From an uncultured Trueperaceae bacterium (GTDB lineage Bacteria > Deinococcota > Deinococci > Deinococcales > Trueperaceae): a DNA stretch of 64,000 bases. The stretch is from the NCBI GenBank assembly GCA_963799485.1, contig CAWCXJ010000001.1:64001-128000 (forward strand), given 5' to 3'. Made by a program: the position numbers and the translations under genes. The notes under the pieces are model-generated. The model did not search any database. It worked only from the letters and a program-made list of their open reading frames with translations, and was not told the DNA's origin. Positions within the stretch are counted from its first letter, which is position 1, and the number at the start of each line of letters is the position of its first letter. Positions 43,155 to 50,610 of this stretch are shown piece by piece.

Positions 43155-46716
<3,562 letters not shown>

Positions 46717-46720
<4 letters not shown>

Positions 46721-47280
46721 CCCCTTTTGCCCCCATCGACATTCTCCTTCCGCTGCTCTGGCTGTTTATCGTCGTGGTGTCGGCGCAGCGGGGCTTGGTC
46801 GGGCTGATTGCCGGGCTTGCCGGGGCCGTGTTTCTCAAACCGCTGCTGCTGGTTGCAAACTACAGTGCGCCGCTCGCGCTCGTGGTGGCGCTTTTGCTCG
46901 GCTTTCTAGTGACGATGTTGGTGCGGCCTTTTCCCAACCTGAGTTACCGCCAACCGCGCTGGGGCTACTTGTTAGGGACGCTCGGCGGCGCGGTTTTGGG
47001 AACCGCGCTCGTGTTAACGCTGCTCGTTTCTTTGCCCATGGGCCGTGACTTAAGCGGGGCGGTGCGTTATCCCGACAAAGAGATGCCCTTTGCAGCGTTG
47101 TTCGAGCGCTCACGCCTGGTTTCGTTCGGACGTGCTATTTTGCTGTATCCGCTGCTCGAGCAGAGCGGTGAGATTGCCCCCGCGAACCGGGGCGTCTTAA
47201 ACGCGCTGCACACGATGTTCGTTGTCGGGCAGCCGTGGGAGGAGGGCGAGGGAAGACTCTCGGGAAAGCGCAAGCCCTGA
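46717..47280 (+). CDS. Membrane protein, CvpA-like
   Basis: IDILL...QRGLV N-terminus, about 4 TM helices, LG.LGGA.LG. Confidence 0.5.
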
Positions 47281-47376
47281 TTTGCGGCAGGTTTTAGCTT
47301 ATCTAGTGAGCCGGTTATAAGCGCTACACCTCTAGAGGTTATGCGTTCCAAGCCGGTTTTATAAGCCGATACCGTT

Positions 47377-47646
47377 AGCGCCACGAGTGCTGGCTGCAAG
47401 TCAGGTGACGAGGTGGAGGGCTTTTACCCCCGGACACGCATATATATTGCGTTCGGGTGGTAAAAGATAAGGTAACGGTTGACGGCGCTATCATCCCGAA
47501 CCGTACCGAAAATGCGAAGCTGTCTGCGGGCCCCTCCCGTCTTTTGATGCTCGAGTCCTGCCGGAATCCCAACCGGCGCAAAAAGTCGTTACGAAAACCG
47601 GTAGAAAAACCTGAAGGCGTGCCTGTGAGGTCAGCGGCCTGTAGGT
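47377..47646 (+). ncRNA. glmS ribozyme, structural variant with large core insertion
   Basis: AGCGCC 47377, stem CTGGCT/AGTCAG, GACGAGG 47407, P2 GGAGGG 47415/CCCTCC 47532, P3-like CGTCTTTTG/CAAAAAGTCG, P4-like hairpin; located in the glmS 5' UTR. Confidence 0.75.
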
Positions 47647-47715
47647 ATTGTGTGGCTGCGTCTAAACACGCGCAGACCTTGTTGTTGATAGCAGATGTTG
47701 ATATAGGAGACTTTT

Positions 47716-49536
47716 ATGTGTGGCATCGTGGGTTATGTAGGACACCGCCAGGCGGCGGAGGTAATTCTAGACGGGCTCAAAAGGCTCGAGTACCGGGGCT
47801 ACGACTCCGCCGGGGTCGTGATTTCAGGCAAAAACGAAGACGCGCTTCAGGTGACCAAAAGGGCCGGAAAGCTCAAGGTTCTAGCCGCCGCGCTGCAAAC
47901 CAAACCGCTCGCCGGCACGCTCGGCCTCGGTCATACACGCTGGGCGACGCACGGCAAACCCAACGACGTCAACGCGCATCCGCATCTGTCCGAAGACGGC
48001 AAGCTCGCGGTGATTCATAACGGCATCATCGAAAACTACCTGCCGCTCAAGTCGCGGTTGCAAACAGCAGGTCACGTCTTCGCTTCCGAGACCGACACCG
48101 AGGTCATAGTTCACCTCATCGAAGCGCACTATCAGGGCGATCTGGTCGCGGCGGTGCGGAGCGCCCTGCGCGAGGTAACGGGCGCGTACGCGCTCGTGGT
48201 GTCGCACAAAGACCACGACCTGATTGTCGCCGCCAGAGCCACCAGCCCGATGGTTCTGGGTCTCGGCGACGGCGAGACCTTCGTCGCCAGCGACGTACCG
48301 GCGCTCTTGCCGTATACCCGCGAGGTCGTGTTCCTGCACGACGGTGATATGGCGCTGTTGACCCGGGACGGCGTGACGATTACCGACTTCGGCGGCAACG
48401 TGTTGGCGCGCAGCAGCACTACCATCGATTGGGACGCGGAAGCGGCGGAAAAGGCCGGCTTCGAGCACTTTATGCTCAAGGAAATCTACGAGCAGCCCAC
48501 GGTGTTGCAAAACACGCTCGGCGGGCGCTTTGCTGCTAACGGGGCGGACGTGCAGCTGGGGCTGAAGCTCGATCCGAACGACATCGACCGGGTGGTCGTG
48601 AGCGCGTGCGGCACCGCCTACTACTCGGGCATGGTCGGCGAGTATCTGATCGAAAAGCTCGCGCGTATCCCCGTAGACGTCGAGATTGCCAGCGAGTTTC
48701 GTTACCGCGAGCCGGTCTTGAATGACCGCACGCTCTGCGTGGTGGTGTCGCAGTCGGGCGAGACGATCGATACGCTCGAGGCCCTCCGCGAAGCCAAAAC
48801 CCAGGGCGCAAAAACACTCGCCATCCTGAACTCGAAAGGCTCATCCATCAGCCGCGAGGCCGACGACGTTCTTTACATCCACGCCGGCCCGGAAATCGGC
48901 GTCGCCAGCACCAAAGCCTATACCGCGATGGTCGCGGCGTTTGAACTGTTGGCCATCTTTTTAGGCCGCGCCAAGGGTGCGCTCAGCGGTGAACGCGCCG
49001 CCGAACTCATCAGCGCCTTGCGGCAGCTGCCGGTTTTGGTCGAAGAGACGCTGCAAACCCGCGCCGAAGTCGCCCGGATTGCCGAGACCTACAAAGACAA
49101 GCGTGACTACCTCTTTCTGGGCCGGGGTGCGAACTATCCAACGGCTTTGGAGGGTGCGCTCAAACTCAAAGAAATCTCGTACATCCACGCCGAAGCCTAC
49201 GCCACCGGCGAGATGAAACACGGCCCGATTGCGCTCATCGATTCGGACATGCCGGTCGTAGCGGTCGCTACCGCCTCGGCCTTGTATGACAAAACCATCT
49301 CGAACTTGCAAGAGGTGCGGGCCAGGGACGGCATCGTGATTGCTCTGGCCAGCGAAGGCGACACCCGCATCGCCGCGCACGCCGACGCTGTGATCTATGT
49401 CCCGGCAACCCTCGAGCTCGTCTCACCGATTGTCAACGTGGTGGCGCTCCAGCTTTTGGCTTACGAAACCGCTGCGCGGCTCGGGCGCGATGTTGACCAG
49501 CCGCGTAATCTGGCCAAGAGCGTCACGGTCGAGTAA
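47716..49536 (+). CDS. glmS: Glutamine-fructose-6-phosphate transaminase
   Basis: MCGIVG, LEYRGYDSAG, HTRWATHG, SQSGET, PRNLAKSVTVE. Confidence 0.99.
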   Translation: MCGIVGYVGHRQAAEVILDGLKRLEYRGYDSAGVVISGKNEDALQVTKRAGKLKVLAAALQTKPLAGTLGLGHTRWATHGKPNDVNAHPHLSEDGKLAVIHNGIIENYLPLKSRLQTAGHVFASETDTEVIVHLIEAHYQGDLVAAVRSALREVTGAYALVVSHKDHDLIVAARATSPMVLGLGDGETFVASDVPALLPYTREVVFLHDGDMALLTRDGVTITDFGGNVLARSSTTIDWDAEAAEKAGFEHFMLKEIYEQPTVLQNTLGGRFAANGADVQLGLKLDPNDIDRVVVSACGTAYYSGMVGEYLIEKLARIPVDVEIASEFRYREPVLNDRTLCVVVSQSGETIDTLEALREAKTQGAKTLAILNSKGSSISREADDVLYIHAGPEIGVASTKAYTAMVAAFELLAIFLGRAKGALSGERAAELISALRQLPVLVEETLQTRAEVARIAETYKDKRDYLFLGRGANYPTALEGALKLKEISYIHAEAYATGEMKHGPIALIDSDMPVVAVATASALYDKTISNLQEVRARDGIVIALASEGDTRIAAHADAVIYVPATLELVSPIVNVVALQLLAYETAARLGRDVDQPRNLAKSVTVE

Positions 49537-49546
49537 ACAGCACGCT

Positions 49547-49587
49547 ATATGAAAAGAGGTCGGTGTGAAACCGACCTCTTTTCATAT
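49547..49587. terminator. Bidirectional intrinsic terminator
   Basis: Perfect 18-bp inverted repeat ATATGAAAAGAGGTCGGT/ACCGACCTCTTTTCATAT. Confidence 0.85.
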
Positions 49588-49608
49588 TCTTTTTAGGCGC
49601 ATGACCGT

Positions 49609-50610
49609 TTACCAGGCGTAAGCTTCAGGAACCGGGCCGGGGCCGAGTTTACGGCCCCTGTTGATGCTGAATATCTCGTCAAGGCGGGTCATGACGCCCG
49701 GCTCGAGCCTCAACCCTGCAGCCTCCTCTAAACCGTCTAACTGCTCGACTTTCCGCACACCGACGATTGCTGAAGCTACCGCCGGATTCTGCAAAACCCA
49801 GGCCGTCGCTACCACGTGTTCACGCACGCCCAAACCCTTGCACAGCGCAGAAAACTGCGTAAACTGGTCATTGCCTTCGCCCAATTTGATGTCGTACTCT
49901 TCCTCTAACTGCTTGGTGCGTGAGCCTTCAGCCGCGCTCACCTTACCGGTTAAGAGTCCGCCCGCGAGCGGCATATAGGCGATGACGCCGATGCCGAAGT
50001 CTTGTGCGGCGGGCAATACCTCCAGCTCGGGAATCCGGTTGAGCAGATTGTACTGCGTCTGCTCGGAGACGAAGCCGAGAGAGCCGCGTTGCCACGCCTG
50101 CGACTGCATTTTGGCGAGTCCCCAACCGGGAAAGTTGCTCGAGCCCGCGTAGAGCACGTCCCCGTCTGCAATCATCTTTTCATACGTGCCCCAAAACTCC
50201 TCAGAAGAGACGCGGCGGTCGATGTGGTGAACCTGATAGAGGTCGATGCGGTCGGTTTGGAGCCGCCCCAACGACTCCGCGACCTGCTTTCGCGCCTTGT
50301 ACGCCGAAAATCCGGCCTCGTCGTTAGGGACATGGCCTTTTTGCATCGGATTATAGAGCTTGGTTGCTAAAACAACCTGGTCGCGGACTTCGGGCCGACG
50401 CGCAAACCAGCTGCCGATAATCTTTTCCGAGCGGCCTTTGTCGTCACCGCCGTAAACGTTCGCCGTGTCGATAAAGTTGATGTCCATTTCCAACGTCCGG
50501 TCGAGTATTTTATGCGACTCCTCTTCGGACGCATACGGCCCGAAGTGCATGGTGCCTAGGCAAATCTTGCTGACCGTCAGGTTCGAGCGGCCCAGTTTGG
50601 TGTATTCCAT
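49609..50610 (-). CDS. Aldo/keto reductase
   Basis: LGTM, FIDTANVYG, LATK, IDLYQVH, YNLL, YMPLAGGLLTGK. Confidence 0.93.
   Translation of the reverse strand: MEYTKLGRSNLTVSKICLGTMHFGPYASEEESHKILDRTLEMDINFIDTANVYGGDDKGRSEKIIGSWFARRPEVRDQVVLATKLYNPMQKGHVPNDEAGFSAYKARKQVAESLGRLQTDRIDLYQVHHIDRRVSSEEFWGTYEKMIADGDVLYAGSSNFPGWGLAKMQSQAWQRGSLGFVSEQTQYNLLNRIPELEVLPAAQDFGIGVIAYMPLAGGLLTGKVSAAEGSRTKQLEEEYDIKLGEGNDQFTQFSALCKGLGVREHVVATAWVLQNPAVASAIVGVRKVEQLDGLEEAAGLRLEPGVMTRLDEIFSINRGRKLGPGPVPEAYAW

Follow-up and report, generated by a model that had tools for sequence, protein, structure and literature searches.

A predicted structural subtype of the glmS ribozyme in the glmS leader of an uncultured Trueperaceae bacterium

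The glmS ribozyme is the textbook example of a ribozyme that takes a metabolite as its cofactor. The P4 domain is considered to be what keeps its core in shape, and the decay of the cleaved glmS message is known from work in Bacillus subtilis. Here we describe a related RNA element in the glmS leader of an uncultured Trueperaceae bacterium (GenBank assembly GCA_963799485.1, contig CAWCXJ010000001.1). The window, by which we mean the whole stretch of DNA analysed, comprises 64,000 nucleotides (nt; contig positions 64,001 to 128,000), and all coordinates refer to its plus strand, on which every feature discussed is located. We put a probability of roughly 0.8 on positions 47258–47577 being a homologue of the glucosamine-6-phosphate (GlcN6P)-dependent glmS ribozyme that follows a plan common to most of the window's own family (f1) and that would cut between A47267 and G47268. 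Judged from its sequence, the window RNA represents a structural subtype of the glmS ribozyme.

A shared plan upstream of glmS

The gene predicted to be regulated is glmS itself, encoding glutamine--fructose-6-phosphate transaminase (47716–49536; TIGR01135, E 1.4e-253), which is located on the same strand as the ribozyme and starts ~140–160 nt beyond its end. In 37 of 38 relatives a GlmS-type start is found 100–412 nt 3' of the corresponding element, and the remaining one runs off its contig. A preliminary description of this locus had proposed a glmS ribozyme variant upstream of glmS, a proposal that both the downstream gene and the covariance model match reported below (92 bits) uphold.

A BLAST search with the leader against 101 family genomes returned short conserved blocks around GACGAGG-GGAGGGC and GAAAAYGCGA...GUCUGCGGGCCCCUCC in 28 genomes. 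Regions 5' of glmS were read and then parsed with anchors, yielding 44 loci and 38 distinct relatives; locus L023, from the unpublished genome G053, is among the 38 sequences and G053 enters the family tallies, and no conclusion rests on either. A 16-base pattern was too short for scanning genome contigs: of the at least 119 stretches it gave, most were matches by chance, from unrelated phyla. The relatives share a common plan that reads, from 5' to 3', CGAG-RW-A/GCGCAAG-C (the slash marks the predicted cut), helix P1, U-GACGAGG-Y-GGAGGG, a first inserted hairpin (hpA), AUA, a second (hpB), GAAARY-GCGA, an optional third (hpC), GUCUGCGG-GC-CCCUCC, helix P3 and CUCGNN. A MAFFT alignment of 26 members contains 49 invariant columns, among them AGCGCAAG, ACGAGG, GGAGGGC, GCGA and GCGGGCCCCUCC.

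We built a covariance model, R1, from alignment A3. Its 18 sequences were selected from the 38 distinct ones for their short hairpins, and the window was left out. R1 matches the window at 47258–47561 over all 168 model positions with 92 bits (E 1e-22), places the cleavage site at 47267 and accommodates 117 inserted nt within P1; the two runners-up among matches in the 64-kb window reach 10 and 8.3 bits. Applied to 55 sources, the model gave 53 matches, with f1 members scoring 60.9–141 bits. The Rfam glmS ribozyme model, RF00234, finds a match at E<=1 in 14 of 41 related genomes and reaches its 37-bit gathering threshold in only four. Its matches in sister families f2 and f5 of the same order cover 4/4 genomes each at 31.7–49.4 bits, and those in f1 are weak (6/24 genomes, at most 25.6 bits). 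R1 recovers all eight Rfam-positive sister-family ribozymes, at 24.7–40.1 bits and at the same positions as Rfam, and thereby links the f1 design to accepted glmS ribozymes.

Pairing was assessed in a model-fitted alignment, A4, of 48 distinct rows. Its nested helices pair in 95.2% of cells, as against 72.9% in shuffles (0/500 reach the observed value), a figure that comes from rows fitted to the model and from related sequences whose counts are not independent. When partners are slid by 1–3 columns the paired fraction is 37–52%, and an unfitted MAFFT alignment shows the same pairing trend. Two-sided changes are observed in 31 of 33 pairs: 4/6 in P0 (86.4% of cells paired), 5/5 in P1 (99.2%), 6/6 in P2 counting the sister families (100%), 7/7 in hpA (96.8%), 5/5 in hpB (89.9%) and 4/4 in P3 (98.9%). 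A free-energy fold of the window sequence alone recovers P0, P1, P2, hpA and hpB. The homology, the helices and their conservation are matters of observation.

Cleavage site and catalytic core

The cleavage-site motif AGCGCAAG (47267–47274) is invariant in 26/26 sequences and served as an anchor in the 38 distinct relatives, and R1 aligns it at the same place. By analogy with studied ribozymes, the scissile bond is predicted between A47267 and G47268. The catalytic core GACGAGG (47407–47413) begins one base past P1, with ACGAGG invariant in 26/26 sequences. G47413 would correspond to the active-site guanine, a mapping to B. subtilis G42 and Thermoanaerobacter tengcongensis G40 that follows the excerpted text of PMC11602151.

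The 5' strand of P2, GGAGGG (47415–47420), pairs with its 3' strand CCCUCC (47532–47537), and the helix covaries in A4. For the pseudoknot helix P2.1, C47409 can pair with G47516 and G47410 with C47515, as in 44/44 rows. Its 3' strand, GCGA, follows a joint GAAAAU (together 47508–47517); AAA and GCGA are invariant, and the segment equates to AuCGA of the Rfam consensus. The 3' strand of P2.2 (U47525–G47528) lies within GUCUGCGG, which together with the following GC occupies 47522–47531, a placement drawn from the MAFFT alignment, the Rfam consensus and the pair counts. Since the site reads GCGCA, it is CGCA (C47269–A47272) that pairs with UGCG (U47525–G47528), and the four pairs occur in 47 rows as CG (47), GC (47), CG (47) and AU (45). 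The Rfam consensus has AGCGCC with CGgCGG, hence a fourth pair of C-G. A-U is found throughout the order, also in the Rfam-positive sister families, and reads as a two-sided change from the canonical C-G.

A possible competitor of these pairings was noted at the site itself: CGCAA (47269–47273) is complementary to UUGCG (47283–47287) in the 5' strand of P1, and a local hairpin formed by them could compete with P1 and P2.2. The complementarity is probably incidental, because it is not conserved in the related genome G001, which has CUGUAG there.

An oversized P1

P1 keeps an identical register in 38/38 relatives, starting two bases past AGCGCAAG and ending one base before GACGAGG, with pairs that vary freely. 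In the window it is 130 nt long (47276–47405), with a 13-base-pair closing helix (47276–47288/47393–47405) that bounds 104 nt for which a three-way junction is predicted. The 131-nt segment 47275–47405 folds at −57.1 kcal/mol (z −6.26; 0/200 shuffles as stable), and an unconstrained fold of 47255–47590 gives the closing pairs probabilities of 0.97–1.0. A homologous long insert is found only in G001 (locus L013); in the same-genus genomes G005, G004 and G002, P1 is 21–28 nt or similarly short. The P1 interior (47289–47392) can be aligned with that of G001 and contains the conserved blocks GUUCCAA and UUUAUAAG. Matches of a 421-nt BLAST query in the window genome (G000) are restricted to its two full copies of the element, which shows that the interior of P1 is no dispersed repeat.

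Two hairpins inserted into the core

The arms of P2 are 111 nt apart (47421–47531). Directly after P2 comes hpA (47421–47466; CUUUUACC...GGUAAAAG), with arms CTTTTACC starting at 47421 and GGTAAAAG at 47459. A purine-rich joint AUAA (47467–47470; family consensus GAUA(A)G) connects it to hpB (47471–47507), whose arms GGTAACGGTT (from 47471) and AACCGTACC (from 47499) carry a variable tip with GGCGCUA at 47484–47490. The optional hpC of the family plan is replaced in the window copy by 4 nt, leaving two core hairpins only. That this 111-nt insert is made of two hairpins was a claim of the preliminary description, and it has held: both recur in relatives with compensatory changes at every pair counted (seven in hpA, five in hpB). 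The hpA columns are gapped in all eight sister-family rows, and the insert is therefore specific to f1.

Peripheral helices

An additional helix, P0, clamps the leader to the ribozyme body. Its 5' strand CUCGGG (47259–47264, leader bases −9 to −4) pairs with CUCGAG (47550–47555), the six bases right after P3. Contiguous P0 pairs number six in 24 of the 38 relatives, five in 5, four in 8 and two in 1. The fifth pair occurs as UA (12), GC (10), AU (4) and CG (3), and in one member the inner pairs are changed on both sides (UUUGGG with CCCAAG). When P0 strands were re-paired among sequences, the observed mean was reached in 0/2000 trials. Pair probabilities in the window are 0.76–0.89. In the eight sister-family ribozymes (L001–L008), GGG at −5 to −3 and CCCG right after P3 are invariant (8/8) and could form a short P0-like contact; since all eight have both, a short leader clamp may predate the f1 design.

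P3 is miniature in the window (CGUC-UUUU-GAUG, 47538–47549) and covaries in A4. In 32 of 37 parsed relatives (L063 is not parseable) the P3 loop pairs 5–8 bases with a partner 5–10 nt past P0, forming P3.1. The pairing sequences are varied (GAACCC/GGGUUC, GGAUCC/GGAUCC, CGACCC/GGGUCG, UACCA/UGGUA), and the pairing beats 95% of shuffles in 22/37 relatives. The P3 loop of the window is too short for a P3.1 pseudoknot. The same-genus G002 keeps P3.1, and the loss in the window's subclade is therefore recent. Only 11–16 nt separate P3 from the 3' strand of P3.1 in 33 relatives, leaving no room for P4/P4.1. Beyond P0 the window has a GC-rich 3' hairpin (GCCGG-AAUCCCAA-CCGGC, 47560–47577), conserved in four close relatives and uncertain as a member of the ribozyme, with CAAAAAG just past it (47579–47585). 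A simple hairpin finder detects a 3' hairpin in 30/38 relatives; these are not clearly homologous.

Distribution

With R1, the design was detected in 93 of 128 family genomes, in 62 of the 79 of good quality and in 30 of 36 genera. In an order-level sample, 20/26 f1 genomes are matched, these being the strong matches, and f2 (5/26) and f5 (6/19) are matched at 27–60 bits; no match was obtained in f3 (0/23) or f4 (0/26). Among the matches listed, the named metagenome genomes with the design are titled Trueperaceae, Deinococcales or Deinococcaceae bacterium. Two f5 genera (g45 and g47) have R1 matches of ~143–188 nt at 50–60 bits, which lie between the f1 design and the canonical-like sister ribozymes and may represent an intermediate form.

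Predicted function and alternative readings

The window keeps every core element: the A/GCGCA site, P1, GACGAGG with its active-site G, P2, a predicted P2.1 (CG/CG) and P2.2 (CGCA/UGCG). From this we infer GlcN6P-triggered cleavage at A47267/G47268, and the ligand, the cut and the regulation below are all read by analogy with known glmS ribozymes. GlcN6P would bind a preformed core and serve as cofactor for cleavage between A47267 and G47268. Cleavage would part the glmS message from upstream RNA and mark it for decay, and glmS expression would fall when GlcN6P is abundant. We hypothesize that P0, hpA and hpB, with the purine-rich joints (GAUA, GAAAA) beside P2.1, do the stabilising work of P4.

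A more specific proposal is that the family has swapped the P4/P4.1 buttress for two hairpins by P2.1 and a P0 that ties the leader, i.e., the 5' cleavage product, to the ribozyme body, with P3.1 also gone in the window's subclade and the cut falling four codons before the stop of an upstream open reading frame (ORF). We offer this whole only tentatively, as a possibility on which we would not yet rely. The features particular to the window genome and its nearest relatives are the 130-nt P1 (shared with G001 only), the loss of P3.1 and the position of the cleavage site in the last codons of the upstream ORF.

Several observations weigh against a GlcN6P-dependent, self-cleaving homologue. RF00234 finds no match in 45000–50000 (E<=1), in 47330–47720 (E<=10) or in the entire genome (E<=10), so that the window falls below the Rfam gathering threshold without a match even at E<=10; a standard model search struggles with this element, and the Rfam check suggested in the preliminary description found nothing. 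The training set of R1 includes two genus-mates of the window (L012 and L014), and the dependence of the A4 counts on the model has been mentioned above. P2.1 and P2.2 are invariant in the set, neither pair of P2.1 varying at all, and covariation is therefore silent on both. Between P2.2 and P2 the window reads GCC (47530–47532, of which the final C opens the 3' strand of P2) in place of consensus aUG, and according to the excerpt of PMC11602151 the A68U change in B. subtilis lowers the cleavage rate. The P4/P4.1 domain, with its A-rich internal loop and GNRA loop, is not present: what follows P3 is P0 and then a simple hairpin. The P3 loop reads UUUU in the window and likewise in L012, L013 and L014, with no P3.1 partner beyond chance (shuffle fractions 0.56–0.88); P4/P4.1 and P3.1 both stabilise the core in the ribozymes that the same excerpt covers. 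Finally, a scan of 46600–47800 for sigma-70 promoters returned 0 sites.

Some of these same observations would suit a glmS ribozyme derivative that has lost self-cleavage, whether a ligand-sensing or protein-binding leader or a copy decaying after the loss of P3.1 in the subclade. The absence of P4/P4.1 in the family and of P3.1 in the subclade would fit it, as would GCC for aUG next to the active site. However, at least 15 genera show no variation at the scissile A/G, at the active-site G of GACGAGG or in either pseudoknot strand, a degree of constancy that a non-catalytic role would not need, and the subclade retains every core column along with covarying P0, hpA and hpB. We therefore regard a non-cleaving derivative as unlikely.

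Much less probable still is cleavage at the place favoured by the preliminary description, the AGCGCC at 47377–47382. There the cut would fall between A47377 and G47378, followed by a short P1 (CUGGC/GUCAG), and GGCGCUA of hpB would act as a rewired pseudoknot or built-in inhibitory switch. All motifs named in that description are present as it located them, namely AGCGCC, TAGCGCC (47376–47382), GACGAGG, the P2 arms, GGCGCTA (47484–47490) and TGCG (47525–47528). AGCGCC is also closer than AGCGCA to the Rfam consensus site, a 5-base-pair hairpin can be read from the sequence after it, and a whole-genome R1 scan under stricter filters aligned G000 from 47381, beside the proposed site, with 68.2 bits. 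The distal alignment, however, is 24 bits better, and the conserved motif is AGCGCAAG, ~110 bases upstream. The look-alike TAGCGCC lies inside P1 and is predicted to pair locally with 47387–47392. At the position aligned to AGCGCC, G001, the sole relative with a homologous P1 insert, reads TTGTAC, and the short P1 stems of G005, G004 and G002 carry no motif of the AGCGCC type. TAGCGCC has no P0 partner 5' of it, its fifth base C faces U47525, and AGCGCC arises in 14% of shuffled P1 sequences. Nor is TGCG a degraded GGCG, as had been supposed: UGCG is the regular partner of GCGCA in the whole order, with a fourth pair of A-U in 45/47 rows.

The complementarity on which the proposed switch depends is real in that GGCGCTA is an exact 7-nt complement of TAGCGCC, and this specific 7-mer occurs in only 1.4% of shuffled inserts. 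As a complement of the cleavage site it fails, since TAGCGCC is not the site and the match is within chance. In 52.5% of 1000 dinucleotide shuffles, the insert has some perfect 7-nt complement in the P1 interior, and the 343-nt region contains 12 complementary 7-mer pairs, of which two belong to conserved helices. No excess of P1/insert complementarity was detected in any of eight long-P1 members (shuffle fractions 0.26–1.0), and the best match in G001 is elsewhere. The comparison with relatives that was to reveal covariation supports the insert hairpins, but genus relatives conserve neither TAGCGCC nor GGCGCTA: the hpB tip differs in L012, L013 and L014, all of which lack GGCGCTA. In the nested fold the GGCGCUA/TAGCGCC pairing has probability 0, a value to be read with the fact that this pairing is a pseudoknot relative to P1/P2 and beyond nested folding. 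The match is, as far as the sequences tell, a coincidence involving a look-alike of the canonical site. Because it is a chance match and its target is not the site, a rewired pseudoknot or inhibitory switch is unsupported. For the window, the outcome is a corrected cleavage site and a reminder that a canonical-looking motif with a perfect complement can be coincidence.

A chance set of motifs in a long intergenic leader, with no functional RNA at all, would account for the missing Rfam match; it is refuted by the 92-bit match to a model from other genomes, six covarying helices and the presence of the design upstream of glmS in 93/128 family genomes.

Gene context

The genes 5' of the ribozyme and glmS are pheT and an ORF of 187 amino acids (46717–47280), taken from the ORF list as a reading frame in the sequence and without an NCBIfam or Pfam match. 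Its final four codons (K-R-K-P) and stop run through the cleavage motif into the beginning of P1, so that the predicted cut is four codons ahead of the stop codon (47266–47280). Should ORF and glmS share a transcript, GlcN6P-triggered cleavage would free the glmS message, and the upstream message would be left lacking its stop codon. The homologue of the ORF stops ~25 nt 5' of the ribozyme in most other genera (PWEGG-stop), and for this reason the overlap in G000, G001 and G005 resembles an extension by read-through.

A second, 100% identical copy was found in the window genome (contig C9, 140067–142455, versus window 47147–49535; 2389 nt). The duplicated segment comprises the final 134 nt of the upstream ORF, the entire ribozyme and glmS. 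The C9 copy has a different upstream context, with a divergently oriented ORF and no intact 187-amino-acid ORF. Either the regulated unit was duplicated very recently or the second copy is an artefact of assembly; the contamination estimate of the genome is 4.63%. Between the ribozyme and the glmS ribosome site, a terminator-like hairpin CTGCGTCTAAACACGCGCAG with a T-rich tail (47656–47675) was observed, partly conserved in G001.

Comparison with known glmS ribozymes

As the standard Rfam model misses the design, annotation undercounts glmS ribozymes in f1. In the full-text literature searched, which lay outside the McCown 2011 survey, we found no description of a P4-less, Truepera or Deinococcus-Thermus glmS variant, and a periphery swap that replaces P4 may not yet be in print. 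The f1 design would offer a natural test of how far peripheral RNA elements can be exchanged.

The closest relatives of the design are the f2/f5 sister ribozymes (L001–L008), which share AGCGCAAG with CUGCGG and are recognised by R1. They differ in keeping a canonical P4/P4.1 (aligned to Rfam P4) and the aUG joint, and in having neither hpA nor hpB.

With the canonical glmS ribozyme (RF00234; the B. subtilis, B. anthracis and T. tengcongensis types) the window RNA shares its position in the glmS leader, the A/GCGC site, P1, GACGAGG and P2, together with a predicted CG/CG P2.1, a 4-base-pair P2.2 and a P3 hairpin that immediately follows P2. On their 3' side, the two cores agree in order and spacing, UGCGGGCCCCUCC in the window design versus gGCGGaUGcCuCc in the Rfam consensus. 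It differs in having no Rfam match, in pairing the fifth site base with its partner as A-U where the canonical pair is C-G, and in lacking P4/P4.1 with its GNRA loop and A-rich internal loop, the subclade lacking P3.1 as well. Two hairpins (87 nt in the window) replace four bases, uUuA, between P2 and P2.1, and the window adds an extra helix, P0, that joins the leader to the bases after P3, as well as a P1 of 130 nt.

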